Program-made: the position numbers and the translations under genes
NCBI GenBank assembly: GCA_947478465.1
Contig: CANJWH010000010.1
Location: forward strand, 991 to 64,990
From: Bacteroidota bacterium
Lineage (GTDB): Bacteria > Bacteroidota > Bacteroidia > SXHM01
DNA: 64,000 bases
Direction: 5' to 3'
Notes under the pieces: generated by a model
Seen by the model: the letters and a program-made list of their open reading frames with translations, nothing else
Databases searched by the model: none
What the model was told of the DNA's origin: nothing
Shown here: positions 42,324-62,500 of the stretch, piece by piece
How positions within the stretch are numbered: the stretch's first letter is position 1
Layout of the letters: every line of letters starts with the position of its first letter

Positions 42324-42408
42324 CGGAGAGAGAGGGATTCGAACCCTCGTTACCTTGCGGTAAACACGCTTTCCAAGCGTGCTCGATCGGCCACTCTGAC
42401 ATCTCTCC
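42324..42408 (-). tRNA. tRNA-Ser (anticodon GGA)
   Basis: Minus-strand cloverleaf GGAGAGATGTCAGAGTGGCCGA...CGAATCCCTCTCTCTCCG with a long variable arm. Anticodon loop TTGGAAA gives GGA. No encoded CCA. Confidence 0.85.
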
Positions 42409-42449
42409 GGTTAAAGGGGTTGCGAAAGTAATACTTTTCTCGCGCTTGC

Positions 42450-44249
42450 CTAATTGATATACTCTTTCTTCACTTCAAGAGTCAGGCGGTTGTCGCTCAA
42501 CAAACGCTCACAAAGTGCTGCAGATTTAGGAAGCTCATACAGGAAGAAATAATTCATCGCAGCCAATTTGCCTTGGTAGAAATTAAATTCTTCACCTGAG
42601 GCACCTGCTGTTAAAGCCTTTTGAGCTACCATTCCTTGCTTAAGCCATTGCCATGCAATGGAAACAATTCCTGCGTTTTCAAGAAACAATGTTGCATCAG
42701 CTAAGAAAATTTCAGGAGCCTGTGATTGTGCCAGGCCCATCAATTTCATAGTTACTTCTGTGAACTTCTGCATTGCTTTAGCAAGATTTTCAGCATGTGT
42801 TTTCAGGTTTTCAACGCCTGCTGCTTCTGCAATGGTTTGATTAATTTCTGCTGCATACAACATTAAACCTTGTCCCATTTTCATCGGAATTTTTCTTGCC
42901 AGTAAATCCATTGCTTGTATTCCGGTTGTTCCCTCGTAAATAGGATTGATGCGTGTGTCGCGGAAATATTGCTCTAATGGAAAATCATCGCAGTAGCCGG
43001 CACCGCCAAGTGTTTGAACTGCTGCGCTGGTGCTTAGTACGCTCATTTCAGATGGATATGCTTTTGCAATCGGAGTAAGCAAATTCAGGAGCAAATTGTA
43101 TTTTTCTTTTTCTGCGCCTTCTGTTATTTTTTCCATATCTGAATAATATGCGCACTGCGTTACAAAAGACAAGCATCCTTCTGTAACAGCTTTTTGGAAA
43201 AGCAACATCCGTTTCACATCTGCATAATCAATAATCAACGATTGCGGAACAAGCGGGTCTTTATTTGAAACAGGACGGCCTTGTGGACGCTCATTACAAT
43301 ATTCCAACGAAGCATGGTAAGCCGCGCTACAAAGCGCGGTTGACATCATTCCCACACTGATGCGCGCACCGTTCATCATTTTAAACATATACGAAAGTCC
43401 TTTGTGTGGTTCGCCCACCAGCCATCCTTTACAGTTGTCGGCCTCGCCCATGCTAAGGTGTAAAATAGGACAACCCTTCATTCCCATTTTCCCGAAAACT
43501 CCCGCAGAAATAACATCATTGTTTACTAGCGTTCCATTCTCAGGTCTGTATTTTGGAACTACAAAAAGTGAAATTCCTTTCACCCCAACCGGTCCGCCTT
43601 TTATTTTAGCAAGCATCAGGTGAACAACATTTTCAGCACTATGATAATCACCTGCTGAGATAAAAATCTTTTGCCCTTTTATTTTGTAAGAACCATCTTC
43701 AGATGGCTCAGCAGAGGTAGTAATATCACCTAAAGAACTTCCTGCGTCCGGTTCAGTCAAAGCCATAGTTCCCTGCCATTTTCCTGAATCCATGTGAGGC
43801 ACGTAAGTTTCATTCAACTCCTTACTTCCGAAGCTGCGGATCAAATCTGAAGAGCCCATGGTCAATCCGAAATACGAAGCGGCTGAAGTATTGGCCGCAT
43901 GAAAAACGAAATTGGATGCTGCATACAGAGTTCCCGGCATTTGTTGTCCGCCCTCTTCCAACGAAGCAGAGGCAGAAATCCAGCCACCTTCACCCATGGC
44001 ATCCATCATTTTGCGAACACCATCGTGTACTGTAACCACACCATTTTCAAGGTGAGGTTTTTTCTTGTCCATTTCTGTATAAATTGGGAAAAACAATTCA
44101 TCACCTAATTTTTTTGCGGTGTCAATTGTCATATCAATTACCTCTTTGGTGTAGTCAGCGAAGTAGGGGTTTTTTGAAAGATTTTCTGCTCCTAAAACTT
44201 CGTGAAGCACAAAGCGCAGATTGCGCATGTTTACATATTCTTTTGCCAT
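42450..44249 (-). CDS. long-form acyl-CoA dehydrogenase (about 600 aa, FadE-like)
   Basis: Acyl-CoA dehydrogenase N-, middle- and C-terminal domain similarity (e.g. PIYEGTTGIQ) with an additional C-terminal extension. Confidence 0.85.
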   Translation of the reverse strand: MAKEYVNMRNLRFVLHEVLGAENLSKNPYFADYTKEVIDMTIDTAKKLGDELFFPIYTEMDKKKPHLENGVVTVHDGVRKMMDAMGEGGWISASASLEEGGQQMPGTLYAASNFVFHAANTSAASYFGLTMGSSDLIRSFGSKELNETYVPHMDSGKWQGTMALTEPDAGSSLGDITTSAEPSEDGSYKIKGQKIFISAGDYHSAENVVHLMLAKIKGGPVGVKGISLFVVPKYRPENGTLVNNDVISAGVFGKMGMKGCPILHLSMGEADNCKGWLVGEPHKGLSYMFKMMNGARISVGMMSTALCSAAYHASLEYCNERPQGRPVSNKDPLVPQSLIIDYADVKRMLLFQKAVTEGCLSFVTQCAYYSDMEKITEGAEKEKYNLLLNLLTPIAKAYPSEMSVLSTSAAVQTLGGAGYCDDFPLEQYFRDTRINPIYEGTTGIQAMDLLARKIPMKMGQGLMLYAAEINQTIAEAAGVENLKTHAENLAKAMQKFTEVTMKLMGLAQSQAPEIFLADATLFLENAGIVSIAWQWLKQGMVAQKALTAGASGEEFNFYQGKLAAMNYFFLYELPKSAALCERLLSDNRLTLEVKKEYIN

Positions 44250-45218: not shown

Positions 45219-48200
45219 ATGGACTTAGAGGCTGTAAAGAATAGATTTTCGCAACACCCGCGCATCGCTGAATTGGTTAACTCGCTTTCGGCAGGTAATT
45301 CTACGCGCATTCACATCAAAAATCTTGCTGGCTCGTCTTCAGCTTTTGCTGCGGCAACTGTTGTTTCCAAAATTCCGAAAACGCATGTTTTTATCTTGCC
45401 GGGCAAGGAAGAAGCTGCTTATTTTCTGAATGATATTGAAGTGATGCTGGGCAAAGAACAAGTTTTGTTTTTCCCGATGTCGTATCGCAGGCCTTATAGT
45501 GAAGAGGAGAAGACAGACAACAGCAATGTGGTTGAGCGGGCGGAAACGCTTAACAAACTCAATCAGAATTTTGCGCGAGCAGTTGTTACCTATCCTGAAG
45601 CTCTTTCTGAAAAAGTTATCACGAGAAAAGTTTTAGAAAAGAATACGCTGTTGTTGAAAACAGGCGACACTCACGGAATTGATTTTATCACTGATGTGTT
45701 GTATGAATATCATTTTGAGCAGGTGGATTATGTTTTCCTGCCGGGGCAGTTTGCAGTGCGTGGTGGCATTGTAGATATGTTTTCGTTTTCAGGAGAATAT
45801 CCTTTGCGTGTTGAGTTTTTCGGAAACACGATTGAGAGCATCCGCAGCTTTGATCCTTCAACACAATTGTCGGTTGCCAATCTTGTGCGGGCTACTATTC
45901 TTCCTAATGTACAACAAAGCCTGTTGCACGAAAGCCGTGTTTCCTTTTTAGAATTTATTCCTGCTGAAAGTCTGGTGTGGATCACAGATGTAAGAAGTGC
46001 GGTTGCAGTTTTAAATTCAGAACTGGAGGTGGCAAAAGCAGCTTTTGAGAATCTGAAAACTGAAATGAATTATTTACCGCCTGAGGAAAAATACATCAGC
46101 GGAAATTATTTTATAGACAAGTTTAAACAACACAGTATTGTAGAATTAGGACAGGCAGAATATTTTGATGATGTACAAACGATTGAGTTTAATACTTCGC
46201 CACAACCCGCATTCAATAAGAATTTTGAAATGCTGGGCGATCATCTTCGCAAAAATTCTTCGGCCGGTTATCAAAATCTTTTAGCTGCAGAAAATCCCAA
46301 ACAGGCTGAACGCTTGTATTCTATTTTTGAAGACATGCCTGTTAAAGCAGGAGAAAAGAAACCGGTGTTTACACCTTTAGTAGTTTCGATTTCTGAAGGA
46401 TTTACCGACCATGATTTAAAAATATCTTTCTACACCGACCACCAGATTTTTGAGCGTTACCACCGTTTCAAACTGCGTAACGGTTTTGTAAAATCACGTG
46501 AAGCGATTACGCTGAAAGAATTGCATGGATTAAATCCGGGCGACTTTGTTACCCATATAGATCATGGTATCGGGAGATTTGCAGGTCTGGAAAAAATTGA
46601 TGTGAATGGAAAGATGCAGGAGGCTGTGCGACTGGTTTATCGTGACAATGATATATTGTATGTCAGCATTCATTCGCTGCACCGCATTGCAAAATATTCG
46701 GGGAAAGATGGAAATGAGCCAAAGATAAATAAGTTGGGTTCTGGCGCATGGCAAGCGATGAAGTTGAAAACCAAATCAAAGGTTAAAGACATTGCTAAAG
46801 ATTTAATAAAACTGTATGCACAGCGCAGAGCGAAAAAAGGTTTTGAGTTTTCGCAGGATAATTATTTGCAAACTGAACTTGAAGCAAGTTTTATTTATGA
46901 AGATACGCCTGATCAGGTGAAATCAACTGCGGATGTGAAGAAGGACATGGAGCAAAATTTTCCGATGGATAGATTGATATGCGGTGATGTTGGTTTCGGG
47001 AAAACAGAGATTGCAATACGTGCTGCTTTCAAAGCGGTATGCGACAGCAAGCAGGTGGCAGTCCTGGTTCCTACTACAATTCTTGCATTGCAGCATTACA
47101 AAACTTTTAGTGAGCGATTGAAGAATTTTCCGTGTCGTGTTGATTACATCAATCGTTTTAAAACTGCGGGACAACAAAAAGAAACACTTAAAAAATTAGC
47201 TAATGGAGAGATTGATATCATTATTGGCACTCATCGGATTGTAAGTAAAGATGTAAAGTTTAAAGACCTTGGTTTGCTGATTGTAGATGAAGAACAAAAG
47301 TTTGGCGTAGGTGTGAAAGAGAAACTGAAAGCTTTTCGAGTGAATGTAGATACGCTAACGTTAACAGCAACACCAATCCCACGTACGCTGCAGTTTTCGC
47401 TTATGGGAGCGCGGGATTTATCTATAATTAATACAGCACCTCCAAATCGTTTTCCTGTAATTACCGAAGTGCATACGTTTAATGAAGAAGCTATCCGTGA
47501 TGCTATACGCTATGAAATTGACAGGGGTGGGCAAGTGTTTTTTGTAAATAACAGAATTGAAAATATTCGTGAGGTTGCAGGAATGATTTCACGACTTTGT
47601 CCGGATGTGCGGGTTGGTATAGGGCATGGACAATTAGAAGGACATCAACTCGAAGAAGTGATGATGAATTTTATTGAAGGCGCAACAGATGTGCTGGTTG
47701 CCACATCCATCATTGAATCCGGATTAGATATTTCTAATGCTAACACTATCATCATTAATAATGCGCAAAATTTCGGATTAAGTGATTTGCACCAGATGCG
47801 CGGCAGGGTGGGGCGTTCGAACAAAAAAGCATTTTGTTATTTATTGGCTCCGCCAAGCGAAATGCTGAGCACCGAAGCTAAAAAACGTTTACGGGCAATT
47901 GAAGAATTTTCAGAGCTCGGTAGCGGTTTCAATATTGCCATGCGCGATCTGGATATTCGCGGAGCAGGAAATTTATTGGGTGCTGAACAAAGCGGATTTA
48001 TTTCTGACATTGGGTTTGAGATGTATCACAAAATTCTGGACGAGGCGATACAGGAATTGAAATTGGAGTTGGATCAGGAAACTGACATTCAGCAGAAAGA
48101 AAGAAAACCTAATGCAGCAGCACATATTCAGCAACTTTCTTATGTCAGAGATTGTGTGATTGATACCGACTTGGAAATTCTTTTGCCGGATAATTATGTG

Positions 48201-48596
48201 AATAATATCACAGAGCGTCTAGGGCTTTACCGTGAGCTGGATGATATTGAAAACGAAACAAGCTTACAGCTATTCGAAAAAAATATGATTGACCGTTTTG
48301 GTCCGTTTCCAAAGCAGGCAGAAGAATTACTTAACACTATTCGCTTGCGTTGGATTGCGAAAGAAATTGGTTTTGAACGATTGATTTTAAAGAATAAAAA
48401 ACTTACGGGTTATTTTATTTCTTCACCTAACTCAGCGTATTTTCAAAGTGATATTTTTGGTAAGGTGTTGCAGTATGTCCAAACGCACGGCAAGGATTGC
48501 CGCATGACACAAAAAGGGGAGAAGCTGATGTTGAGTTTTGAAAATGTCAACCGAGTAGACGAAGCAATTCGTTGGTTGAAACAGATTCTTGCTTAA
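45219..48596 (+). CDS. mfd: transcription-repair coupling factor
   Basis: 1125 aa. UvrB-homology N-terminus, RecG-like SF2 helicase core (GDVGFGKTE Walker A, DEEQ) and TRCF C-terminal domain. Confidence 0.95.
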   Translation: MDLEAVKNRFSQHPRIAELVNSLSAGNSTRIHIKNLAGSSSAFAAATVVSKIPKTHVFILPGKEEAAYFLNDIEVMLGKEQVLFFPMSYRRPYSEEEKTDNSNVVERAETLNKLNQNFARAVVTYPEALSEKVITRKVLEKNTLLLKTGDTHGIDFITDVLYEYHFEQVDYVFLPGQFAVRGGIVDMFSFSGEYPLRVEFFGNTIESIRSFDPSTQLSVANLVRATILPNVQQSLLHESRVSFLEFIPAESLVWITDVRSAVAVLNSELEVAKAAFENLKTEMNYLPPEEKYISGNYFIDKFKQHSIVELGQAEYFDDVQTIEFNTSPQPAFNKNFEMLGDHLRKNSSAGYQNLLAAENPKQAERLYSIFEDMPVKAGEKKPVFTPLVVSISEGFTDHDLKISFYTDHQIFERYHRFKLRNGFVKSREAITLKELHGLNPGDFVTHIDHGIGRFAGLEKIDVNGKMQEAVRLVYRDNDILYVSIHSLHRIAKYSGKDGNEPKINKLGSGAWQAMKLKTKSKVKDIAKDLIKLYAQRRAKKGFEFSQDNYLQTELEASFIYEDTPDQVKSTADVKKDMEQNFPMDRLICGDVGFGKTEIAIRAAFKAVCDSKQVAVLVPTTILALQHYKTFSERLKNFPCRVDYINRFKTAGQQKETLKKLANGEIDIIIGTHRIVSKDVKFKDLGLLIVDEEQKFGVGVKEKLKAFRVNVDTLTLTATPIPRTLQFSLMGARDLSIINTAPPNRFPVITEVHTFNEEAIRDAIRYEIDRGGQVFFVNNRIENIREVAGMISRLCPDVRVGIGHGQLEGHQLEEVMMNFIEGATDVLVATSIIESGLDISNANTIIINNAQNFGLSDLHQMRGRVGRSNKKAFCYLLAPPSEMLSTEAKKRLRAIEEFSELGSGFNIAMRDLDIRGAGNLLGAEQSGFISDIGFEMYHKILDEAIQELKLELDQETDIQQKERKPNAAAHIQQLSYVRDCVIDTDLEILLPDNYVNNITERLGLYRELDDIENETSLQLFEKNMIDRFGPFPKQAEELLNTIRLRWIAKEIGFERLILKNKKLTGYFISSPNSAYFQSDIFGKVLQYVQTHGKDCRMTQKGEKLMLSFENVNRVDEAIRWLKQILA

Positions 48597-49756
48597 TCTT
48601 TTTTCGAATCAATTATCACAACTGCATCCGCAATCACCTTTGCCATTTTACTCATTGTATCATTGCTGAGGCATTCAATAGTATCTCGTCTGGTGTGGTA
48701 AGTTGGATGAAGCTTGTGCATTGGCAAACCTACTACTGAAACAGCGGGAATTCCATTTCGGGTGAAACTGGATGCATCAGTAGCGCCTATAGGAATCATT
48801 CCTGATTTTTTCTCCAACCCATTTGATTTAAAAGCTTTACCGAGGGTTTCAATCAGGTATTTATCGTGACGGGCAAAAAGGGATAATTCAAAATCAATAA
48901 TATGCATTTCATTTATGTCGAGCATTCCGTCAAGGTTAATAATATGTGTTGCCTTTATTAGTTCATCACGATGCTTTTGCTCATAGGCTTTTGAACCTTT
49001 GAGACCGGTTTCTTCCGAACCGAAAGAAATGATTTTTAAACGTGTATTTTTCAGAACTGATTTTCCATCTTTCAAAAGATTTTGTGCAGCAAAGAAGGCA
49101 ACAGCAACCCCGGAAAGGTTATCCTGTGCGCCATCTACAACTCGTTTTCCGTGAATAAAAAAGAAGCTTAATGAGAAAATGCTGCAAAATGCAAAGCAAT
49201 ACCAACCATAGCTGAGGAAAGGACTAAACCCAAAAACTAGAGATGATAAATAGAAAACAGGAAGTGTTACAAATGCAACTCCGCTAACCAGCATCATACG
49301 GATACCCCAATCGCGAAAATAATACCACCAGATAAATTCGGGAGTACTATCCATGTGTCCTGAAATAATTACGGTTTGTTTCACTTCGCCAACAGGTTCT
49401 ATTGTGCCGATAACATTACGCGAAGTAAGTTTTGGATAAAAAATATCAAGCCAATCTTTATACATCAGAAAATGAAAAAAGAAAACCACAGAATTTACTG
49501 CACTTACTGCAATGGCAAAGTTTACAGACCAAAGCGGTAAGACCAATGAAATATAAAACAGAATGCAGAAAATTTTAAGAGAAGAAAACTTTGCAGTAAG
49601 AGCATCGGTAAATTCTTCGGTTTCTACGGTGTTGCAAATCGGTTTGAGTTGCTCTGAAAAATACTCTTGTGCATTTTTTTCAGCAATACTTCCAGCCCTT
49701 CGCGGACCAAATTTTTGGATAATAGTGGATACTAAATCTAGAGGAGTTTGCAGCAT
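48593..49756 (-). CDS. membrane-anchored M28-family Zn-peptidase
   Basis: Several TM helices plus an M28 catalytic pattern (HMDS, DNLSGVA, GSEETGLKGS). Convergent with mfd and overlaps its stop by 4 nt. Confidence 0.68.
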   Translation of the reverse strand: MLQTPLDLVSTIIQKFGPRRAGSIAEKNAQEYFSEQLKPICNTVETEEFTDALTAKFSSLKIFCILFYISLVLPLWSVNFAIAVSAVNSVVFFFHFLMYKDWLDIFYPKLTSRNVIGTIEPVGEVKQTVIISGHMDSTPEFIWWYYFRDWGIRMMLVSGVAFVTLPVFYLSSLVFGFSPFLSYGWYCFAFCSIFSLSFFFIHGKRVVDGAQDNLSGVAVAFFAAQNLLKDGKSVLKNTRLKIISFGSEETGLKGSKAYEQKHRDELIKATHIINLDGMLDINEMHIIDFELSLFARHDKYLIETLGKAFKSNGLEKKSGMIPIGATDASSFTRNGIPAVSVVGLPMHKLHPTYHTRRDTIECLSNDTMSKMAKVIADAVVIIDSKKD

Positions 49757-49911
49757 GAAATAATTTTATGATCGGTTTTGTTTCAAAAGTAAAATAAAAA
49801 AGACTCCGCACGCTTTGCGCTTTCACCTGAGATCTCAAAACTTTACGTCCCTTTGCGCAATCCCGCTCTTAACATTGGTTAATTTGCAATCAACCTTTCT
49901 GTCCCTATAAT

Positions 49912-50040
49912 TACCCTAACTCACCGTATTTTCAAAGTGATGCTTTTGGGAAGGTACTTAATTATGTGCAAACACACGGTAAAGATTGCCGCATGACCCA
50001 GAAAGGGGATAAGCTGATGCTGAGTTTTGAGAATGTGGTT
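49912..50040 (+). pseudogene. orphan, divergent duplicate of the mfd 3' end (gene fragment)
   Basis: About 85% nucleotide identity to 48432-48557. Keeps the reading frame (PNSPYFQSDAFGKVLNYVQTHGKDCRMTQKGDKLMLSFENV) but has no upstream gene body and a different tail. Confidence 0.75.
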
Positions 50041-50134
50041 ACGGTCGGGGGTGGGATTAAGTGGTTGGGTGGGATTTTGTCACCCTGAGCATAGTCGAAG
50101 GGCTTTATTATAAGCAAAGCCAACATCCCAACCT

Positions 50135-51817
50135 TCATTGCCTTGCAGTTTTAATACGAAAACAAGTCAAACACCAAGTATTACCATGCTTTATTGAAAC
50201 AGGTGTTGCCCACCATTGATGACCCTCTTTGCATTGCCATAAAAGTTTTGTACTGCTATTTTTATATTCTTTTGATAAGCATAGTCCTTGATTTCTTATG
50301 GCAAGGTGCTGCATTTCCTCTATCGTAAGTTTTTTCAATTTTGAACATTCAGGACACCAACATTTAGCATGAATAATTGATACTGGTGGTGATTGAAATT
50401 GATGGCCCTCTTTACATTCCCAAATAAGTTTAGTGCTAAGGTTTATATACTTTTCTGATAAACATTTCCCACCTCTCAATTTTGCAAGCTCCTGCATTTG
50501 CTCAATTGTCTTCTTTTCAGAACCACTACACTTTAAACACCAACTCTCATTATTTTTTACATTATTAGGAGATGCAAACCATCTGTGTCCTTTTTTGCAT
50601 TCCCATTCTAAATTTCCCTCACTCCCCTTATATTCATTTGAAATAAGCTTTCCTCCTCTTTGTTGAGCAATTCCATTTAACATTGTAATTGCTGAAAAAC
50701 TCTTCTTAAATTCATCAAACGAAATCTCTTCCGGCTTTCTTATAATTTGAACTTCTACTCTCTCCAGCTCTTTTACTATCCACCCGACTAAACCGTCTTT
50801 AATTTTATTAGCAAAGTCTGGAATAAGTATGATTTTAATTCCTTTCTCCCTGCATAATTTTTCTTTTAGACTATCGCGTTTTTGCGCTTCTGATAACGTA
50901 TATTTTTCCGAGTGAAAAAATTTTATCTCTTCAAAGTGCTGAGCACCATTGTACTCAAATGCTAAATTATATTCCTTTGAGTAACCATCTAATTCTAATC
51001 TATTTCCAAGAACTTGTCTTGTTTTTTTGAATTCTGTTTGTAACAAATATTCTAAAATGAATCTGCATTTTTCTTCTGTATAATACCATCTACATTGCGG
51101 ACACCATTGTCCACTGTTCATTATACTTGCTGAAATCATTTCAAATGTATGTCCGTCTGCACATTTCCATTCTAGTTTTGTTCGGCTGTTTACATACGCT
51201 GTTGATAGTAATTCCCCACCTCTCGATTTAGCAATCTCTTGTAACTCTTTAATTGTTGGCTTTGCCTTTCCAGAACATTTTGGACACCATACATTATTGC
51301 CTTTAATATCATGTGCAGTTGCTAAAAAATTATGCCCTTTTTCACATAGCCAAGATAGTTTTTCTTTATTGTGATTATATCTTTCAGATAAACATTGACC
51401 TCCTTTTGTCTTAGCATATTCTTTCATTTCCTCTATGGTCAGTTTTTTTGTTCCACCACATTCGTGACACCAATGTTTAGCATTAATTATTGAACTAGGT
51501 GTTGCAAACCATTCATGCCCTTTATCGCATTGCCAATGAAGAGTTGAATTAATATTCTTATAAGATATTGATAGACATTTCCCCCCTCTTGATTTTGCAA
51601 TTTCTTGCATTTTTTCAAGAGTATATTTTCTTTTTCCTGAGCAATCAGGACACCAATGCCCATATTTTATTGAGTGGTATAAAGCAGTCCATTTGTGCCC
51701 TTTTGCACATTGCCATTCAAGTTTATTATTGCTGTTTTTGAATTCTAATGACAAGCATTTTCCCTCTCGCAGCTTTGCAAGTTCTTGTGCCTTATTAATC
51801 GATAATTCAGATCGCAT
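50135..51817 (-). CDS. multi-zinc-ribbon repeat protein with central DUF559/Vsr-like (PD-(D/E)xK-type) nuclease-like domain
   Basis: Seven tandem roughly 50-aa modules, consensus T[IL]EEMQE[IL]AKxRGGKCLSxxYKNxxxKLxWxCxKGHxWxAxPxSIxxxxxWCPxCSG, four N-terminal and three C-terminal. They flank a core with ELDGYS...LAFEYNGAQH...KRD..L...GIKIILIP resembling DUF559 endonuclease-like domains. Confidence 0.6.
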   Translation of the reverse strand: MRSELSINKAQELAKLREGKCLSLEFKNSNNKLEWQCAKGHKWTALYHSIKYGHWCPDCSGKRKYTLEKMQEIAKSRGGKCLSISYKNINSTLHWQCDKGHEWFATPSSIINAKHWCHECGGTKKLTIEEMKEYAKTKGGQCLSERYNHNKEKLSWLCEKGHNFLATAHDIKGNNVWCPKCSGKAKPTIKELQEIAKSRGGELLSTAYVNSRTKLEWKCADGHTFEMISASIMNSGQWCPQCRWYYTEEKCRFILEYLLQTEFKKTRQVLGNRLELDGYSKEYNLAFEYNGAQHFEEIKFFHSEKYTLSEAQKRDSLKEKLCREKGIKIILIPDFANKIKDGLVGWIVKELERVEVQIIRKPEEISFDEFKKSFSAITMLNGIAQQRGGKLISNEYKGSEGNLEWECKKGHRWFASPNNVKNNESWCLKCSGSEKKTIEQMQELAKLRGGKCLSEKYINLSTKLIWECKEGHQFQSPPVSIIHAKCWCPECSKLKKLTIEEMQHLAIRNQGLCLSKEYKNSSTKLLWQCKEGHQWWATPVSIKHGNTWCLTCFRIKTARQ

Positions 51818-51949
51818 TTTTTTGTTTGATAAAACAAACCTAAAAACTTTCCCGCATCTTCACTAAACGCAATTTCCAATTGCGCTTAGAACACAAGATA
51901 ATTTGCAACTAAGCGAAGCGATCTCACCGAAGGTAATTATCTTTTCAAC

Positions 51950-52400
51950 GTATGTCCATTCCATTTCCAAAACTCCTGCCTTCCTCTGTGCCTCCTCATT
52001 CTAACTCTGTGTAACTTCTCCTCTCCGGTTAAAAAATCCATTTCACATCCCCATTTTCCCTGTCATCCGTGTCCCATTTCCCTTCCCCACACATAAAACA
52101 CCCCATTTCACGCAAAGAAACTGCCATTTAATGCTAAACAATTAACATTTTATGTGTATCAATTAACAGTAACTTCTAATCAATTAACGCTTAATTCGTA
52201 AAAATTAATAGTAAATGTGTATCAATTAATAGTAACTTCTAATTTAATAATACTAAATTCTAATCAATTACCACTTCATTCTAATATATTAACAATAAAT
52301 GTGAACAAATTACCACTAACTTCTAATCAATTACCAATTAATGTGTATTAATTAACTATAATTGCTCCTCAATTAACACTTCAAGCTCCGAAATTGAGAG
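51950..52400. repeat. iteron-like direct-repeat arrays in a divergent intergenic region
   Basis: Five CCATTTC(A/C)C repeats at 51955-52110. A further 8-10 AATCAATTA(A/C)C / AACTTCTAAT repeats, including three roughly 40-bp copies of aatgtgtatcaattaacagtaacttctaatcaattaac, lie at 52130-52380. Confidence 0.7.
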
Positions 52401-52478
52401 CGCAGGTAAAATAAATCCCAGCGCAAGTCAAAAAATCCAGCCTCTAACCTCCAACTTCTAACCTCTAACTTCCAAAAA

Positions 52479-52850
52479 ATGGCAAACCGCTCCTACACAT
52501 CCAACCTCTTCTTAAACATAGAACATGTCTGCGCAGTAAGAAACATTGACCGGCCTTTCACCTTCCTGCGCAAGCACGGTTTTACCCACAACACCGCCTC
52601 ACAGCTTGTCAACAATGAAGTAAAAGAAATCAACCTCGCCTACATCGAGAAGCTCTGCCTCATTTTCAATTGCACCCCCAACGATTTATTTGATTACTCC
52701 CCTTCTAAAGACGCTGCACAAACAAACAACAACCCGCTCATTGCAATTATAAAAACCCGGAAGCCCGTAAACTTCAACGAGCTTCTCCGCGACATGCCCC
52801 TCGATCAGCTCAAAGAAATAGAAGAAGAAATTCGTAAGCGGAAAGCCTGA
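52479..52850 (+). CDS. XRE-family helix-turn-helix transcriptional regulator
   Basis: HTH_XRE-like segment FLRKHGFTHNTASQLVNNEVKEINLAYIEKLCLIFNCTPNDLFDY. Confidence 0.62.
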   Translation: MANRSYTSNLFLNIEHVCAVRNIDRPFTFLRKHGFTHNTASQLVNNEVKEINLAYIEKLCLIFNCTPNDLFDYSPSKDAAQTNNNPLIAIIKTRKPVNFNELLRDMPLDQLKEIEEEIRKRKA

Positions 52851-52890
52851 AAATATAATTTGTAAATTTGCTTCACTAAAACACAAATGC

Positions 52891-53133
52891 ATGAATATTC
52901 AGGTAAGAAAATTAAACTTTATTGAGGAGCTTTTAAGAGTAAGTGATGAGAAAATAATTTCAAAATTAGAAGCGTATCTTAAAGAGGAAAAAAAGAAAAG
53001 TTATGAGAAGGAATTAAAGCCAATGGCTCATAAAGATTTTTATGCAATGATTGACCAGTCGTTAAAAGACAGTAAAGAAGGAAGAGTAACTTCCAATACT
53101 GATTTGAAGAAGAAAATAAAAACGTGGAAATAA
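52891..53133 (+). CDS. putative antitoxin of a type II toxin-antitoxin pair
   Basis: 80-aa charged protein overlapping the downstream toxin gene by 10 nt. Assigned from position and size only. Confidence 0.45.
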   Translation: MNIQVRKLNFIEELLRVSDEKIISKLEAYLKEEKKKSYEKELKPMAHKDFYAMIDQSLKDSKEGRVTSNTDLKKKIKTWK

Positions 53134-53438
53134 AAATATTCTGGTCTGCACTTGCAGAGGATCAATTAAAAAACATTTTTGATTATTATAAAGAAGTTGC
53201 AGGAGAACGAATAGCTAAACGGATAATAAATCAAATTGCGGAACGGGTTACTATCCTTGAAAAAAATCCCAGAGCTGGGCAAAAAGAAGAATTACTGAAA
53301 GAATACTCGGAAGAATTTCGCTACCTCGTAGAATCAAATTACAAAATCATTTACTGGATCAACAGCAATATCATTACTATTTCATCTGTATTTGATTGCC
53401 AGCAAAATCCGGAAAAAATGAAGGAGTTGAAAAAATAG
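53124..53438 (+). CDS. RelE/ParE-family type II toxin
   Basis: 104 aa with an IFWSALAEDQL...YYKE N-terminus and a FRYLVESNYKIIYWINSNIITISSVFDCQQNP C-terminal pattern typical of ParE/RelE toxins. Confidence 0.68.
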   Translation: MEIKIFWSALAEDQLKNIFDYYKEVAGERIAKRIINQIAERVTILEKNPRAGQKEELLKEYSEEFRYLVESNYKIIYWINSNIITISSVFDCQQNPEKMKELKK

Positions 53439-53474
53439 AGCAGGAAGGAATGCTGCTTATCATGAATTAACAAA

Positions 53475-53508
53475 CAAAAAAGTCCCGCATTGCTACAGGA
53501 CTTTTTTT
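53475..53508. terminator. weak bidirectional terminator-like hairpin
   Basis: aaaaaagtcccgcattgctacaggacttttttt sits between convergent genes. Confidence 0.45.
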
Positions 53509-53550
53509 GTGTCTGCCTTCTCGCAAAAAACAGACGCGGGATTGAAAATC

Positions 53551-56500
53551 TTATTGCAGAACCGTTACATTTCCTGTATTGCTAAATCTTCCGTCTTCGT
53601 GTTCCATGCCTTCCCATTGTGTTCCATCCATAAAGGTTGCATCTGCTTTCCAGATATAAGCACCCTGTGGAACAACCACACCATTGTATCTTCCATCCCA
53701 GCTTTCAACAGGTTTGCCATCAATTAACTTACTCGATTCCCAGAGCAGGTTACCCCATTTATCAAATATCATACAGTGGTAAGTTGCTACACCAATACCT
53801 TTTGGCAGGAAGTATCCGAAGTCGCCATCACCACCAACAATCAATGCATTAGGCATAAACAATCCTTTGAAAAGTTCCACTTCAACAGTTTGAGTAATGG
53901 TATCTGAACATCCTGCACCGCTGTAAGCAATCAGTGTTACATCAAACTCACCGTTGTCTGAATAATTGTTTATCGGATCTGTAAGTGTTGATGTTTGTCC
54001 GTCACCAAAATCCCAATCGTACGTTGTTGCACCTGTTGAAAGGTTGGTGAACTGAATTTGTCCGTCAGGGTCAACTACATTGAAATAATCGGAAGTGAAA
54101 TCTGCTACCGGGGTTTGCAACACTGTTACAGCAGAAGTGAGTTCGAGTGTATCGTTACAGATGCCGCCTCCACTTACTACCAATGTTACATCGTATGTTC
54201 CGGGAATTTCATAAGTGTGTGAAGGGTTGCTGAGCATTGAAGTATCACCATCACCAAAGCTCCAGTAGTAGGTAACACCGTCAACTGAATTGTTTGTGAA
54301 GGTCACCGTGTAAGGAGCACAACCTGAGTTTCCGCTCAACGCGAACGATGCAGTAGGTGCAGGATAAACATTGTAAACGTAATCCGAAGTATCTATGCAA
54401 CCACTTGCAGAAGTTGCAGTCAACACAACTGTATAAGTTCCGGTAGTATCAAAACTTGCTTGTCCGTTAGTAGTTGTTGCATTAGTTCCGTTTCCGAAGT
54501 TCCATGAATATGAAACAGCATTTGTTGAAGTATTAGTAAAATCAACTGTTACCGGATAAGTGCAGGAGTAAGTATTTGTAGAAGGCACTGTGAATGCAGC
54601 TACCGGAGGTGCGCTGATTGTTACGGTTACACTGTCCTGAGTTCCTACACAACCAAGTCCATCAGTTACAGTTACTACATACGTTGTAGGTACCGAAGGC
54701 AATACGATGTGCGAAGCTCCGTTTCCAAGACCATTGTTCCAGCTGTAAGTGTACACACCATTACCGCCTGTTGCGGTTGCAGAAATAGTAATACTGTCCC
54801 CTGCACAAACTACGTTTCCGATGCTGTTTATGTCAGCAACCAATTGTGCCGGCTGACCTATTGTAATTGTTTGCGAAGCAGCGCATCCATTTGCATCTGT
54901 AGCTATCACTATGTAAATTCCTGCAGAAAGACCTGTTGCTGTTGAAGTTGTATTATTACTTGGTGTCCAGTCGTAAGAGTAAGGAGTTGTTCCGCCAGTT
55001 ACAAGAACAGTTGCTGTTCCGTTTACTCCACCAAAGCAGGTAGGTTGTGAACTTCCTATTAAAGAAATTGCCATGTTACCCGGAGCAGAGATGGTAACGG
55101 TTGTGCTGTCTGAACATCCTGCGGCATCAGTTACAATAACTGTATGGCTTCCTGAAGTAAGGTTGGTAGCAGTAGCAGTTGTTTGTCCGTTATCCCAAGC
55201 GTAGTGGTAAGTTGGTGTTCCACCCACAACAGCAACAGTTGCAATACCAGTTGCAGAACCACCGCATGCAGGCTGTACAATGTTTGAAATAGTTAAATCA
55301 AGTGCAGCAGGTTCGCTCACAGTAAATGAAAGTTGAAGTGCGCAACCAGTAGAGTCGGTAATATTTACTGAATAGTCACCTGCCAGAAGATTTGTTGCTG
55401 GAACTGTAGTTTGTCCGTTACTCCAAGCATAAGTATATGGAGTATTTCCACCGGCAATGTTAAAGCTGATGCTTCCATTGTTTTCACCATTGCAGGTTAC
55501 ATTGTTTACATCCACATCTCCGGCTGAAAGAACTGCATTTTCGGTAATTACAAAGTTTACAATGGTGATACATTGATTGGCATCACGGATAGTGACAGAG
55601 TGCAATCCGGCCGGCAAATCTGAAACAGTTTGAGTTGTTTGACCATTATCCCAAACGTAGGTATAGCCCGGAATACCACCTGAAACGTTTATAGAAGCCG
55701 ATCCTGTAGCGCCACCTGCACAACCAACATTTACCTGGTTTTCAATAAACGCAGACATTGGTGAAGGCTGTGTGATGACTAAACTTAAAGAAGTATCGCA
55801 ACCACTTGCATCAGTAATCTGAACAGAGTATTCACCTGCGCCAACACCATTCAAATCATGAGTGGTTGCACCGTTAGACCATAAGAAAGTATATGGAGCA
55901 GTTCCGCCAATTACATTAATGAAGCCAGCGCCATTGCTTCCTCCGTTGCAAGTTACATTTAGTATATCAAGAATTGTTGCAGTTAAACTTGGTGGCTCTG
56001 TAATGTCAGCAAAAACAGTTTGTGAGCAACCATTTGCATCAACAACTGTTACCTGATGAATTCCAAATGCAAGACCTGTTGCAGTTTGTGTTGTTTGCCC
56101 GTTGGCCCATGAATAAGTGTAAGGAGCTACTCCACCGGTTACGTTTACTGTTGCAGATCCGTTGGCAACTCCTGCGCAGCTTACAGAAGAAGTATTCTCG
56201 ATAACTGCAGTTAATTGCGTAGGATTAACAACCTGAATAGTGTCAGTTGAAGAACAGCCATTAGCATCTGCTGCAGTTACAATATAAGTTCCTGCGAAAA
56301 GATTAGAAGCAACCGAGCCGGTTTGTCCGTTGCTCCAAAGGTAAGTGTAAGGAGCTGTTCCTCCTGAAGGAGTTGCTGTAGCAACACCGTTTCCGGCACC
56401 AAAGCAACTAACATCTTCACTATTGAAATCAGAAGTTACATCAGCACTTACTGTGAGAGTAATAGGGTTAACAATTCCAGCTTGAGTAGTTGTTGTGCAG

Positions 56501-59500
56501 TTGTTAGCATCTGTAACTGTTACATCATAAATACCCTCGGCAAGATTAGTTGCAGTTGCATTTGTTTGTCCGTTCACCCACAAATAAGTGTAAGGAGCAG
56601 TTCCGCCAGTAACAGAAACTGTAGCACTTCCATTGTTATTTCCATTGCATGAAGGCTGAGTAGTTGATGAAATTGTAGCAACCAGTTGCTCTGGCTCATT
56701 CACCACAATGTTTATAGTAGTATCACAACCCAGAGAATCAGCTAATGTGATTGAATATGTTCCTGCAATTAATCCGGAAATATCTTCTGTTGTAGAACCG
56801 TTACTCCAGGAGTATGAGTAAGGAGCAGTTCCACCGGAAGGTGTGATGTCAATAGCTCCGTCATTTCCTCCATTGCAACTTACATCGCTTACAGCAATAT
56901 TATTAGAAGGAATTGCAAGAGGTTGAGGTTCGCCAACTATAACAGTTAAGATTACATTGCATCCGTTGGTATCTGAAACTGTAACGGTATAAGTTCCGGC
57001 AGCAAGACCTGTTGCTGTAGAACCTGTTTGTGTATTTGACCAAAAGTAGAAATATCCCGGAGTTCCACCAGCGGCCTGAACTGTTGCGCTTCCGTTTGCA
57101 ACACCGTTGCATGAAGGTGTAACAATTGAAACAACATCTGCAGTTAAAACCATAGGATCAACTAGTGTTACAGAAACGGTGGTGTCGCAACCGTTAGCAT
57201 CTGTAGAAGTTACAAAGTATGTTCCGGCAGCTAAGTCGGTTGCAAAATAATCTGTTGAACCGTTAGACCATTGGTAAGTGTATCCGGGGGTTCCGCCATT
57301 TACTAAAACTTCTGCCATACCATCAGCATCGCCTGCGCATGATATGTCCGTTCCGTTATAGTCTGAAGTAACTGTAGCGTATGCAATAAGTGGATTAGGT
57401 TCACCAATAAGTACGTTTGTTGATGCAATGCATCCGTTGTTATCGGTTACACTTACAAAGTAAACACCTGCACTTAGGTTTGTAGCAGTAGATGAAGTTT
57501 GTCCATCACTCCACAAATATTGGTATCCGCTTGCACCTCCGGTAGCGTCAACTGTTGCATAACCATCTGCTAAACCACTGCAGCTTACATTATGTTGGTC
57601 TATTAGATTTACTTCCAACAATTCAGGTTCTGTTAAAGTAATGCTGTCATTAATTGAGCATCCGTTTATATCAGTAATGGTTACATAATATGTTCCTGCA
57701 AAAACAAATACCAGATTTTCGTCAGTTGAAGTAAAACCGTTTGGTCCTGTCCATGCATAATTGTAATCAGCACAATCTGCACCACCACTTAAAGCAAGAT
57801 TGATGCTGCCATTATTAGTATTTGCGCAGTTTATGTTCCAGCCTCCTGCATTTACTGGGCTTGTCAGACTATCAACTGTAAGCGGTGTTGGTTCTGTTAA
57901 TGTAATTGAAGTTGTTGCAGTATTTCCAAGCCCATCTGTAACGGTTACGGAATATGTAGTTGCAGAAAGACCGGTAGCAACTTGTGAAGTTTGTCCGTTG
58001 CTCCATAAGTAAGAATAAGGCATGCATCCACCGGCAGGCAATGCGGTTGCAGTTCCATTATTTCCTCCCGGACAAGTAATATTAAATCCACAGCTAAATG
58101 TATCAGCAACTGCAGAAACTAACAAAGGATTTGCAAGAACAGTTATGTCAAATGAACAGGTTGTTGTATTTCCTGAAGCATCAATTGCTGTGTATGTTAC
58201 AGTTGTTGTTCCAACAGGGAAGCTGTTTCCTGACTGGAAGTTACTGGTCAATGAGGTAACCGCACAGTTGTCAGTAGCAATTGGCGTATTCCATGTAGCA
58301 TAAGGATTGCAATTTGAACTGTCAGGTTGAATTACAATATCAGCAGGACACAAGGTAAATTCAGGTGCAATGTTATCCACTACCGTTATAGTTGAGAAAC
58401 AATTGTCTGAATTTCCATTCACATCCGTAACAGTAAGTGTTACCAGATTTTCGCCAACATTTCCGCAGTTGAAAGATGAAACAGAAATTATCATTGTATC
58501 AATTCCGCATGCATCAGTTGAGCCGTTATCAATTTGTGCAGCGGTGATTGAAATTACTCCATTAGAGTCAAGAGCAACAGTAATATTTTGACAAATTGCA
58601 TTAGGATTGGTTGCATCGACAACTGTAACAGTTGAAGAGCAGGTAGCAACATTTCCGTTGAGGTCAGTAACAGTTAAAGTAACAGTATTAGAGCCAACAT
58701 TTGAGCAGTCAAATGTATTTGGAGAAACTGTCATTGAAGCAATTCCGCATGCGTCTGAAGAACCGTTATCAACCTGTGAAGAAACGATTGAAATATTTCC
58801 TGTTCCGTCTAAATCAATTGTAATATCGCGGCAGATTGCAATTGGATCAACATTATCCTGCACTGTTACAGTTGATATACAGGTTGAAACATTTCCATTA
58901 ACATCAGTCACAGTTAATGTTACAGAATTAGTTCCTATACCAGCGCAAGTAAAGGTGTTAGGGTTCACAGTCATTGTTGCAATTCCGCAGTTGTCAGATG
59001 AACCATTATTTACCTGTGAAGAATCGATTGTTACCTGTCCGTTTGCATCCAACTGAACCGTGATGTCTTGACAAATTGCAATCGGATCTATCTCGTCATT
59101 AATAGTAACTGTTGCTGTGCAAGAAGAAGAGTTTCCGAAAGCGTCTGTAACAGTTAAAGTCACAGTATTTGCACCAACGTTTGAGCAATCAAAATTGGTT
59201 TCACTTACGCTGTATGTTAAGCCATTGTTAGGAGTTGAGCAGTTGTCGAACGAACCATTGTCAACCTCAACAGCAGTAATAACAGCGTTTCCGTTTGCAT
59301 CTAACTGTACTGTTATGTTTTGACAAATAACAGTTGGTGAAACAGTATCGGTAATTGTAACAACAGCATCGCATGAAGAAGAATTTCCGTTAGCATCAGT
59401 TACGGTTAATGTTACTGTGTTGGCTCCGATGTTTGAGCAATCAAAATTAGTTTGACTTGCAGTGTAAATTAAGCCTGAACCTGAATTAGAGCAGTTGTCA

Positions 59501-62500
59501 GTAGTTCCGTTATCTAAGTCAATACCAGTTATAACAACGTTTCCGTTTGCATCCAAAGCAACCGTAATATTCTGACAAACGATAGTTGGATTAATGGTAT
59601 CCTGAACAGTTACAACAGCTGTGCAGGTTGAAATATTTCCGGAGTTATCGGTAGCAGTTAATGTTACAGTATTAGTTCCAACATTTGAACAATCAAATGC
59701 AGAAGGCGAAACAGTAAGTGAAGCAATTCCGCAGGCAGCGTTTGTTCCGCCATCAACTTGTGCAGCTGTAATAATTACGTTTCCGGTTGCATCTAATTGA
59801 ACCGTGATGTCCTGGCAAACTGCAGCAGGCGCAACATTATTCTCAACTGTAACAATGGCTGTGCAGGTTGAAGAATTTCCGTATGCATCTGTAACAGTTA
59901 AGATAACTGTATTAATACCTTCATCTGTGCAATCAAATGTTGTTTGACTTGCTGTGAATGTTAATCCTGAATTGATGTCCGAACAATTATCTGTTGAACC
60001 ACCATCAATATCAATTGCACTGATTGTAACGTTTCCATTTGCATCTAACTGAACGGTAATATTCTGACAGATTGCAACAGGAGAAACAGTATCAGAAACC
60101 GTAACTATTGCATCGCATGAAGATGAATTTCCATAAGCATCAGTTACTGTTAAAGTAATTGTATTTGCACCGATGTTTGAACAATCAAATGAAGTTTGAC
60201 TTGCGCTGAATGTTAATCCTGAGCCCGAAGTTGAGCAGTTATCACTTGAACCGTTGTCAATGTCAGTAGCAACAGTTACTACATTTCCGTTTGCATCTAA
60301 CTGAACTATGATGTTCTGACAGATTACTGTTGGGTTTGTGTCATCCTGAATTGTTACTGTTGCACTGCACGTAGAAGAATTTCCATTGTTATCAGTTACA
60401 GTTAATGTTACCGTGTTTGCACCAATATTTGAGCAATCAAATGCTGAAGGAGAAACTGTCATTGAAGCAATTCCGCATGCATCAGAAGAATTGTTGTTTA
60501 CCTGAGCAGCAGTGATAACAGCATTTCCATTTGCATCTAAGTTTACAGTTATGTTCTGACAAATTGCAATTGGAGCCGTGTTATCCTGAACAGTAACGAT
60601 TGCTGTGCAGGTAGAAATATTTCCATGATTATCGGTTACAGTTAAAGTAACAGTGTTAGTTCCAACATTTGAACACGTGAATGATGAAGGAGAAACTGAA
60701 AGCGAAGCAATTCCGCATGCATCTGAAGAACCATTGTCAATTTGTGCTGCTGTGATAGAAGCAATACCCGCAGCGTTCAGTTGAACAGTGATATTCTGAC
60801 ATTGAGCAATCGGAGCAACATGATCCTGAATAGTAACAATAGCTGAGCAGGTTGCTGTGTTTCCGCTTTGGTCAGTAACAGTTAAGGTTACAGTATTTGC
60901 TCCTATGTTAGAGCAATTAAATGAAGAAGGATTAACACTTAATGTAACTGGTCCGCACTGGTCGCCTGAACCGTTATCAACCTGTGCCGCAGTAATGGTT
61001 GCATTCCCGTTTGCATCCAGTTGAACAGTAATGTTACGACAAAGTGCAATAGGAGGGTTGTTGTCTAAAACAGTAACAGTTGCTGTGCATGTGCTTTGAT
61101 TTCCGTTGTTATCAATTACTGTTAATGTTACTGTATTTGCACCAACATTCGCACAAGTAAATGTTGAAGGCGAAACACTCATTGCAGCAATCCCACAGTT
61201 GTCAAAAGAACCTCCATCCACATCAACAGGAAGAATGGAAATATTTCCGGTTGCATCTAACTGAACAGTTATGTTCTGACAGATTGCAGTTGGAGGTGTG
61301 CTTGCATTATCCTGTACTGTTATTGTTGCTGTGCAGGTAGAAACATTTCCGTTTACATCAGTAACAGTAAGTGTTACTGTATTTGCGCCAACATTTAAAC
61401 AGTTGAAAGTAATTTGCGGCTGTCCGTTAATAGCGATGGAAGCAATTCCGCAATTATCATTTGAACCATTATTGATTTGCGCAGCTGTTACAATTACAGA
61501 ACCTGTTTGGTCTAACTGAACAGTTATGTTCTGACAGATTGCAATAGGATCTACATTATCCTCAACCGTAACCGTAGCAGTGCATGAAGAAACATTTCCG
61601 TTTACATCTGTAACTGTTAATGTAACTGTATTTACTCCAACGTTTGCACAGCTGAAAGCAACCTGTTTTTGACCATTAATGGTTGATGAACCAATTCCGC
61701 ATGCATCGCTGGAAGCACCGGTAACCTGCGAATCTGTAACAATAACAATTCCATTTGAATCAAGTTCAACAATTATATTCTGACAAATGACTACAGGTGC
61801 AATTGTATCTTCAACAGTAACATTTGCAAGGCATGTAGAACTGTTTCCGCTAAGGTCGGTAACAGTTAAAGTAACCGTGTTAAGTCCAACATTTGAACAA
61901 TTAAATGTATTAGGAGAAACCGAAAGAGATGCAATTCCGCAATTATCAAAAGAACCGCCATCAACATCTGCAGCAACAATAGAAGCATTTCCTGTAGCAT
62001 CAAGCTGCACAGTTATATTCTGACAGATAGCTGTAGGTGGTGTGCTTGTATTATCAACAACTGTAATAGTTGCATTGCAGGTAGAAGTATTTCCATTCAC
62101 ATCAGTAACAGTAAGTGTTACTGTATTTGCACCAACATTTAAACAGTTGAAAGTAATTTGCGGTTGTCCGTTAATAGCGATGGAAGCAATTCCGCAATTA
62201 TCATTTGAACCATTATTGATTTGCGCAGCTGTTACAATTACAGAACCTGTTTGGTCTAACTGAACAGTTATGTTCTGACATATTGCATTCGGGTTAATAT
62301 TGTCTTGAACAGTTACAGTAGCATTACAAGTAGAAACATTTCCGTTTATATCTGTTACAGTAAGTGTTACCGTATTAGCTCCAACATTTGCACAGGTAAA
62401 CGTGTTTGGCGAAACGGATATGGATGCAATACCGCACGCATCTGAGCTTCCGTTGTTAACCTGTGCTGCTGCTACTGAAGCATTACCACCTGCGTTTAAC

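Follow-up and report, generated by a model that had tools for sequence, protein, structure and literature searches.

A predicted Vsr-type endonuclease embedded between two arrays of CapR/DUF4379 zinc modules on an accessory islet of a Bacteroidota genome

What could be the role of a protein in which a nuclease-like domain is enclosed on both sides by short repeats rich in conserved Cys and His? The gene that raises this question is found in a stretch of 64,000 nucleotides from a Bacteroidota bacterium (contig CANJWH010000010.1), which is referred to as the window below. An original prediction, made from the DNA letters, described its product as seven zinc-ribbon-like repeats flanking a DUF559/Vsr-like nuclease. 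Here, we found that the repeats belong to named zinc-finger families and that the central domain has a Vsr/EDxHD-type nuclease fold with its active-site residues apparently intact. In our view, the product is rather likely a site-specific DNA endonuclease of homing type; the gene is free-standing and probably selfish.

Seven zinc modules and a nuclease core

The predicted arrangement of seven repeats, four before and three after the central domain, was borne out by the positions of the motifs and by the stretches matched by Pfam family PF14311. The WCxxC motifs start at residues 55, 116, 177 and 238 and then at 426, 487 and 548, a period of exactly 61 residues, and a WxCxxGH motif lies ∼20 residues ahead of every one of them (Table 1). 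The dimensions given before have to be corrected: the modules are 61 rather than ∼50 residues long, and 127 rather than ∼110 residues lie between the two arrays. Similarly, the lead-in TIEEMQElAK, which had been regarded as invariant, is a conserved helix whose sequence varies among the seven modules (SINKAQELAK, TLEKMQEIAK, TIEEMKEYAK, TIKELQEIAK, AITMLNGIAQ, TIEQMQELAK and TIEEMQHLAI). Modules 2 to 7 share 33-54% identity in pairs, a range from which module 1 was left out because it is one residue out of register in the comparison. Such identity suggests that the repeats are old and not the products of recent duplications.

To define the conserved positions, we refer to a layout survey of 121 proteins, consisting of the query and the 120 top matches listed, from which 842 modules were aligned. 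The C36-x3-H40 and C56-x2-C59 pairs are kept in all seven modules of the window protein; in the survey, C36, C56 and C59 are found in 842/842 modules and H40 in 833/842. This part of the predicted Cys/His set stands, whereas the Cys of the 'CLS' motif, which had been included in it, is not a ligand. That Cys, at module position 20, is replaced by Leu in modules 4 and 5, both of which touch the core. In the family it is 97% conserved and is substituted by L, F or V only, which argues that it is a core residue of the module rather than a metal ligand. Among the non-Cys residues at position 20 with a known offset from the nuclease, 12 of 19 are at offsets -1 or +1, which hold ∼15% of the modules. 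This skew hints that the modules flanking the nuclease may pack against the core.

The identity of the repeats, for which no named family had been offered, came from Pfam. Seven stretches of the protein match PF14311 (DUF4379, 'probable treble clef zinc finger') at 94.2 bits (E 5.5e-27), and five match the overlapping PF21817 (CapR homology domain) at 45.3 bits (E 1e-11), the curated gathering scores being 24.5 and 24.2, respectively. Judged by these scores, the seven-repeat pattern is far above chance. The CapR protein of a Vibrio phage satellite derives, by domestication, from the DNA-binding domain of a homing endonuclease. In electrophoretic mobility shift assays, it binds to a specific promoter fragment, and Cys-to-Ser mutants of its Cys pairs lose binding (PMC8096241). 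In the CasPR anti-CRISPR proteins, the CapR domain is required for silencing of cas, via binding within coding sequences (bioRxiv 10.64898/2026.02.23.707548). That relatives of the modules bind DNA supports the predicted role of the repeats in nucleic-acid recognition and, by homology, the modules of the window protein would bind both zinc and DNA. All seven modules are positively charged (+3 to +7) while the core has a net charge of -1, a distribution that would fit binding of nucleic acids by the modules. In the full-length structural model, a module consists of a helix, a short strand, a β-hairpin, a short helix and a knuckle, with a predicted local distance difference test (pLDDT) score of 80-92. 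A Foldseek search of the PDB with this model gave no credible match for the zinc modules.

The same search gave only two credible matches, 1vsr (prob 0.99) and 3r3p (prob 0.97). An AlphaFold2 model of the core, built from an alignment of 42 diverse homologues, has a pLDDT of 90.1 and a predicted template modelling (pTM) score of 0.83. Nine core residues are invariant in that alignment, namely E248, E275, D277, G278, E288, G291, H294, D315 and K318. The active site of I-Bth0305I is formed by E170, D196, N208, H213 and D222, whose counterparts in Vsr are E25, D51, H64, H69 and D97 (PMC3239194). By motif order and spacing, rather than by residue-level structural superposition, E248, D277, H294 and D315 fit this series, and the D-to-H spacing of 17 is the same as that between D196 and H213 (PMC3239194). 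E288 and N290 are candidates for the counterpart of N208 (His64 in Vsr), which is not securely assigned.

The predicted DUF559/Vsr-like core therefore holds at the level of the fold, where it resembles Vsr/EDxHD nucleases and has the catalytic residues, but it has no match to the profiles of DUF559 (PF04480) or Vsr (PF03852). Nor did the core have a match in NCBIfam, and phmmer of the protein against the PDB gave none for it. Since sequence matches to EDxHD/Vsr members are absent, the core is best described as a remote outgroup, as has been concluded for its relatives (PMC12350094), and on present models it is linked to I-Bth0305I and Vsr by fold and motif only. We found no known role of the modules other than in nucleic-acid binding, and both the nuclease fold and the catalytic residues are present in the core, so that the original prediction survives in its main outline.

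The public gene call for this protein (P0001) starts at M131 and comprises 430 residues, and so loses the first two zinc modules. The full frame of 560 codons is open, and the first two modules hold all conserved residues. Within the region 51428-51817, there is a public call of a spurious 58-residue open reading frame in another frame, over 51487-51663.

Family size, layouts and module variability

How unusual is the window protein? A word-indexed protein search found 1,442 matches among 8,000 candidates scored. In the layout survey, the core is present in 114/121 proteins and nearly always has modules at both of its ends, 3-8 on the N-terminal and 2-8 on the C-terminal side. We further searched 1.84 billion representatives of 50%-identity clusters exhaustively with a profile of the core alone, which matched at least 30,001 of them at E<=0.001, 8,992 at E<=1e-10 and 1,101 at E<=1e-30. 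Among the best 148 new representatives, modules are found on both sides in 100, on the C-terminal side only in 36 and on the N-terminal side only in 4; the exact 4+3 layout recurs in 2. A few representatives have two nuclease cores with a module in between (architectures NzNzz and NzN, in which z stands for a zinc module and N for a nuclease core).

The embedded-nuclease layout is thus the commonest in databases, and the window gene is not unusual within its family. This layout, nuclease between two arrays with up to 14 modules in total, was not described in the literature that we searched. The novelty implied by the original prediction does not hold, as the repeat was already named and homing endonucleases of phages that join a zinc-module array to a Vsr-like nuclease had been described before (PMC12350094; PMC10448857). 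Within this very large, bioinformatically recognised family, the window gene is an ordinary one. Its closest orthologue (P0004) is 64% identical and collinear module by module. Among homologues, the nuclease is flanked on its two sides by arrays of 3 to 14 modules, and the genomic contexts are diverse and in several cases involve mobile elements.

The family spans Bacillota, Bacteroidota, archaea, phages and giant viruses, with named sources including Bacillus, Priestia, Lysinibacillus, Neobacillus, and Woese- and Nanoarchaeota. Among annotated phage genomes, 427 records were matched by tblastn, some of them labelled as Hef-like or VSR homing endonucleases. The protein matches phrog_559 (E 9.2e-75, residues 11-370) and phrog_681 (E 1.3e-58), and the core alone matches PHROG families annotated as homing or intron-encoded nucleases; the label 'HNH endonuclease' used in PHROGs is a misnomer for a Vsr-type fold. 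In BFVD, 271 viral structures were matched at E<=1e-3, many from giant viruses and one labelled 'Group I intron-associated VSR homing endonuclease'. A gene of Lausannevirus has been described as '4 DUF4379 + restriction endonuclease' (PMC5513546).

Seven of the 121 surveyed proteins (P0011, P0012, P0045, P0067, P0071, P0083 and P0106) have 7-15 zinc modules and no nuclease. At one homologue locus (L022, 6001-7356), there is likewise a 451-residue protein with seven modules and no nuclease core. These nuclease-free arrays may have been domesticated for DNA binding, as CapR and CasPR were, or they may be fragments of genes.

The original prediction had pointed to variable sites between the conserved ligands, and its examples correspond to module positions 22-31. 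Across the survey, about half of the 61 positions are near-fixed, including A13, G18, C20, L21, S22, Y25, L32, W34, C36, G39, H40, W42, W55, C56 and C59. Entropy exceeds 2.9 bits at positions 11, 15, 23, 24, 28, 29, 33, 37, 41, 45, 47, 48, 51, 53, 54 and 58. In the model, the ∼16-20 hypervariable positions are concentrated in the loop before the β-hairpin (23-29), at alternate outward residues of the hairpin (33/35/37 and 41/43/45) and in the short helix (47-54). As modelled, this is the pattern of one exposed face, which both drift and diversifying recognition would fit. When distant homologues were compared, the best-matching module was found at an equal offset from the nuclease in 252/792 cases, which suggests that the order of modules is not an ancient fixed structure; this figure neither proves nor excludes a recognition code. 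The 61-residue modules could, in the manner of zinc fingers or the repeats of transcription activator-like effectors (TALEs), constitute a naturally occurring array that reads DNA module by module; in our opinion, this is a long shot. If it were true, with a fixed number of base pairs read by each module through its variable positions, the family would offer a ready-made single-chain nuclease, perhaps of reprogrammable specificity, in thousands of natural variants.

An accessory islet at a strain-variable site

The accessory islet suggested for this gene was confirmed by three related genomes, which are metagenome-assembled genomes (MAGs) labelled Chitinophaga/Bacteroidetes (L003, L004 and L005). 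Their collinearity with the window extends, at 87-90% identity, through the genes of acyl-CoA dehydrogenase, aldose epimerase, Mfd and M28 peptidase and, at ∼76% identity, through the 3' end of a giant adhesin gene. In all three, the sequence corresponding to window position 49802 is joined directly to that of 53472, such that the terminator of the adhesin gene runs straight into the upstream region of the M28 peptidase gene. We therefore take the 3.67 kb in between as an insertion. Its GC content is 0.356, compared with ∼0.40 in the flanks, and both of its junctions fall in the T-runs of terminators, where CTTTTTT is found on either side. The positions of the islet and its contents, which agree with the Mfd duplicate, iteron-like repeats, helix-turn-helix (HTH) regulator and toxin-antitoxin pair of the original prediction, are listed in Table 1.

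Table 1. Nuclease gene, modules and islet features (positions in the window)
Feature	Positions	Strand	Description and evidence
Whole gene, 560 residues	50135..51817	-	Four Zn modules, Vsr/EDxHD-like core (predicted), three Zn modules, 6-residue tail
Module 1, residues 1-61	51635..51817	-	WQCAKGH and WCPDC motifs; net charge +4; register shifted by one residue relative to other modules
Module 2, residues 62-122	51452..51634	-	Motifs, alignment; net charge +5
Module 3, residues 123-183	51269..51451	-	Motifs, alignment; net charge +4
Module 4, residues 184-244	51086..51268	-	Adjoins nuclease; Leu replaces Cys at module position 20
Nuclease core, residues 245-371	50705..51085	-	α-β-β-β-α-β topology
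Module 5, residues 372-432	50522..50704	-	Adjoins nuclease; Leu at module position 20; best CapR stretch, residues 382-431
Module 6, residues 433-493	50339..50521	-	Motifs, alignment
Module 7, residues 494-554	50156..50338	-	Motifs, alignment
Accessory islet, 3.67 kb	49803..53471		Missing from L003, L004 and L005 (blastn)
Fossil fragment of mfd 3' end, 123 bp	49915..50037	+	Repeat search, alignment; just past the nuclease stop codon
Four CCATTTYMC motifs	52038..52111	+	Upstream of the nuclease gene
21-bp tandem array, ATCAATTAAC-type core	52125..52380		Tandem Repeats Finder, repeat search; periods 42, 63 and 84 also scored
Cro/C1-type HTH regulator, 123 residues	52479..52850	+	PF13443 HTH_26, E 1.1e-11
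Putative antitoxin (80 residues, no Pfam match) overlapping ParE-family toxin (104 residues)	52891..53438	+	PF05016 ParE_toxin, E 1.4e-11; toxin frame 53124-53438

The fragment of mfd is 85% identical to the 3' end of the resident gene (49915-50036 aligned with 48426-48547 in the repeat search; 104/123) and closer to mfd of the three relatives (116/123), and its ends are sharp in the alignment. It would fit these data that the islet was formerly located against mfd in another lineage, and also that the fragment is filler captured at break repair, the resident 3' end having been replaced by recombination later. In both cases, the fragment would be the trace left by a transfer or repair of DNA beside the nuclease gene. 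It is suggestive of break repair or of earlier residence elsewhere, and not a proof.

Two metagenome contigs match the window, one exactly (L001) and one nearly (L002). Over 12.6 kb, the latter departs from the window only in two patches of ∼12% divergence, at 42.4-44.0 kb in the acyl-CoA dehydrogenase gene (42400-44000) and at 46.5-47.6 kb inside mfd itself (46500-47600), which are either recombination tracts or assembly chimeras. As a recombination tract, the second patch would be an example, in this same mfd gene, of the replacement assumed for the resident 3' end. We rejected this contig as evidence of a recent transfer of the islet: the islet is identical in it, so it is silent on mobility.

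The nuclease and HTH genes diverge from an intergenic region of 660 bp, which holds the CCATTTYMC cluster and the 21-bp array. Four of the nine CCATTTYMC matches in the window are clustered within 74 bp, while 3.2 are expected in all 64 kb, and this cluster is a possible operator or promoter element. Arrays of 21-bp period are also found at the homologue loci L022 (10849-10990), L023 (7715-7856) and L033 (13058-13254), which represent two independent loci because L022 and L023 are near-duplicate contigs. Their motifs (ATGTCTTGCAATC; AAGATACATGC) are unrelated to that of the window, and the arrays are 3-6 kb from the gene. We therefore rejected an association of 21-bp arrays with the nuclease; the arrays may be a coincidence or a shared feature of carrier elements, e.g. 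iterons or operator arrays.

Immediately next to the islet lies a gene (53551-63861) for a giant adhesin, a repetitive surface protein of 3,436 residues in which many ∼80-residue 'CQNITVxLDxxGN...TLTVTDxxGN' repeats precede repeats of other types. Its identity to the copy of the relatives is only ∼76%, compared with 87-90% on the other flank.

Homologues are found in different company. P0079, 51% identical to the query, is solitary downstream of a housekeeping-type run of genes (parB, dapB, signal peptidase and wbqC). P0118 has a UDG gene on one side and a type I HsdR gene on the other, P0010 belongs to an element with a tyrosine integrase and has an Upx-like restriction endonuclease as its neighbour, P0024 from Bacillus thuringiensis is between a resolvase and a phage integrase, and P0035 is near Rep, FtsK and DUF4365 genes. 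At the 18 metagenomic and the other homologue loci compared, the Mfd, peptidase, HTH, antitoxin and ParE proteins of the window had no match, which suggests that the islet is a one-off mosaic rather than a conserved operon. A search of PADLOC-DB 2.0 gave no match for the nuclease, HTH protein or ParE, and a weak match of the antitoxin frame to PDC-S59 (E 0.002); with this negative result, membership of a known defence system was rejected. Overall, the gene comes across as self-sufficient and sporadic in its distribution, being carried on mobile elements or moving between them.

Possible roles and comparison with known systems

How could such a protein act? We argue that the seven basic, zinc-stabilised CapR/DUF4379 modules, which flank the core as beads on a string, would bind a long duplex DNA, and that the two arrays would place the metal-dependent Vsr/EDxHD nuclease on the phosphodiester bonds between them. 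In such a complex, D277 would likely hold Mg2+ and H294 act as the general base, with E248 and D315 assisting; Mg2+-dependent cleavage is to be expected by homology. An allele lacking the gene would be cut and then repaired from the gene-bearing allele, by which the gene and its neighbouring DNA would be copied. The gene could thus persist as a free-standing selfish element, which in this genome is on an islet of 3.7 kb with an HTH regulator and a ParE pair. We infer homing as the biological role on the following grounds. Presence and absence of the gene at an otherwise collinear locus, as homing genes show, is seen in the comparison with L003, L004 and L005. We count the insertion of the islet, its low GC content, the captured mfd fragment and the solitary insertion of P0079 as support for mobility, and the homing-annotated phage relatives found in PHROGs, BFVD and by tblastn as support for a homing-type endonuclease.

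Several observations weigh against this reading. We found no cleavage, DNA-binding or zinc data for the window protein or for any member flanked on both sides. The core had no Pfam match at E<=1, DUF559 and Vsr models included, and neither phmmer nor hmmsearch with a profile of 42 core sequences found 3R3P or Vsr in the PDB at E<=10. In the full-length model, confidence is good for each domain (pLDDT 85.6), while the pTM of 0.47 means that the placement of the modules relative to the active site is not fixed by the model. The islet junctions, being at T-runs, do not allow a cleavage site to be read from them. No intron or intein context was found, a search of Rfam at E<=1 having given nothing relevant in 49500-53700. 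Neither a donor of the islet nor another copy of it was found, and movement was not observed. Moreover, several of the homologues in bacteria are carried by elements with an integrase and have restriction-type genes as neighbours, a setting that would fit defence or conflict as well.

The last point leads to the idea that the protein is a nuclease of defence or inter-element conflict, i.e. a stand-alone, restriction-like enzyme on mobile elements, which would cut invading phages or competing elements and, owing to its long recognition sequence, would need no methylase to leave the host unharmed. We regard this as an unlikely explanation, though one to be taken seriously. P0010, P0118, P0024 and P0035 are in integrase-bearing elements or by defence-type genes, the islet of the window holds a ParE toxin-antitoxin pair, and homologues in giant viruses are annotated 'restriction endonuclease' (PMC5513546). 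On the other hand, the nuclease had no match in PADLOC, neither a methylase nor any other partner is encoded on its islet, the neighbourhood is not conserved from one homologue to the next, and the best-studied phage relatives are homing endonucleases or repressors. Those repressors suggest a further role, namely that of a domesticated DNA-binding repressor or architectural protein, perhaps acting on the adjoining 21-bp array, whose nuclease would be inactive or structural. CapR and CasPR are indeed nuclease-free derivatives of homing endonucleases that repress transcription (PMC8096241; bioRxiv 10.64898/2026.02.23.707548), nuclease-free arrays occur in 7/121 surveyed proteins and at L022, and the 21-bp array and CCATTTYMC cluster are located in the upstream region of the gene itself. 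The presence of all active-site residues, none of which varies among 42 homologues, speaks for an active nuclease, and the arrays near other homologues are unrelated in motif and kilobases away; we consider a repressor quite improbable. Finally, the neighbours in fold space, and nothing else, would suggest an RNA-directed enzyme that binds or cleaves RNA like RAP proteins, or a mismatch nickase like Vsr, with modules as non-specific tethers. A sporadic, islet-borne distribution and an abundance of phage homing genes do not fit such a housekeeping role, and the helix of Vsr that reads T:G and its intercalating Trp are specific to Vsr and missing already in I-Bth0305I (PMC3239194). It would surprise us greatly if either of these functions were the right one.

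With a homing-type endonuclease as our preferred interpretation, we would like to point out what is gained. A publicly 'hypothetical' protein with a 430-residue call becomes a complete, 560-residue putative Vsr-type endonuclease with a zinc-finger array, and its islet marks a strain-variable spot between the mfd/peptidase genes and the giant adhesin gene. The window gene adds nothing unexpected to its family, and the remaining interest lies in the layout with modules on both sides, which is dominant there. The family is a reasonable place to look for new nucleases with long sites and for modular reading of DNA.

Among known systems, the closest in composition are the homing endonucleases of phage group II introns, in which 3-5 domains of ∼60 residues related to CapR/DUF4379/DUF723 are followed by a ∼100-residue EDxHD/Vsr-like nuclease (PMC12350094). 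These proteins, e.g. gp068 of Bacillus phage Eldridge, have the same ∼60-residue tandem zinc module and the same type of nuclease as the window protein; Eldridge_068 is matched by the hidden Markov model (HMM) of the core at E 7.6e-20 and three times by that of the module, with three modules preceding the nuclease. Their nuclease is C-terminal and their genes are within introns, whereas the nuclease of the window protein is central (4+3) and its gene free-standing in a bacterial chromosome (a Bacteroidota-type MAG). Free-standing genes are known from Campylobacter phages, where the Hef-like homing endonuclease gene of CP30A is located between the genes of topoisomerase II subunits. The Hef-like proteins also consist of tandem zinc modules (five in CP30A and nine in F341_142) followed by a Vsr-like ELD...ECNG..H core, and are 23-30% identical to the query by tblastn. 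They differ in the period of the modules, 52 residues compared with 61, and in that the nuclease comes after the array and, in CP30A, is followed by an extra C-terminal domain.

The similarity to I-Bth0305I (PDB: 3R3P) is restricted to the core, which shares the E...D...H...D set and the 17-residue D-to-H spacing (PMC3239194). I-Bth0305I acts as a dimer on a 14-bp pseudopalindrome (PMC3239194) and has NUMOD/HTH-like motifs at its N-terminus. The window protein lacks this NUMOD/HTH-type region N-terminal to the core, a trait of the EDxHD family, and has CapR/DUF4379 modules in that place and also on the other side. Conversely, CapR of the Vibrio PLE satellite and CasPR share with the window protein the zinc-finger domain family (PF21817) and not the nuclease, being transcriptional repressors with one or two such domains. 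They provide the sole experimental evidence for specific DNA binding by the domain and for its Cys requirement (PMC8096241; bioRxiv 10.64898/2026.02.23.707548). The ligands of CapR are four Cys residues in a CxxC...CxC pattern (PMC8096241), compared with C-x3-H...C-x2-C in the window modules.

Fusion of repeated zinc fingers to a nuclease is also seen in the T5orf172 homing endonucleases of phages, which are related to GIY-YIG enzymes and often have one or several zinc-finger domains of CapR/DUF723/DUF4379 type (PMC10448857). Their repeats, which are fewer than those of the window protein, have been proposed to tune or diversify target recognition by recombination (PMC10448857), and their GIY-YIG-like catalytic domain is unrelated to the Vsr/PD-(D/E)xK-like core described here. 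Engineered zinc-finger nucleases and TALE nucleases (TALENs) are comparable by analogy only, in that a modular DNA-reading array positions a nuclease. Their folds are unrelated, and their nuclease is appended to one array, while that of the window protein is embedded between two.

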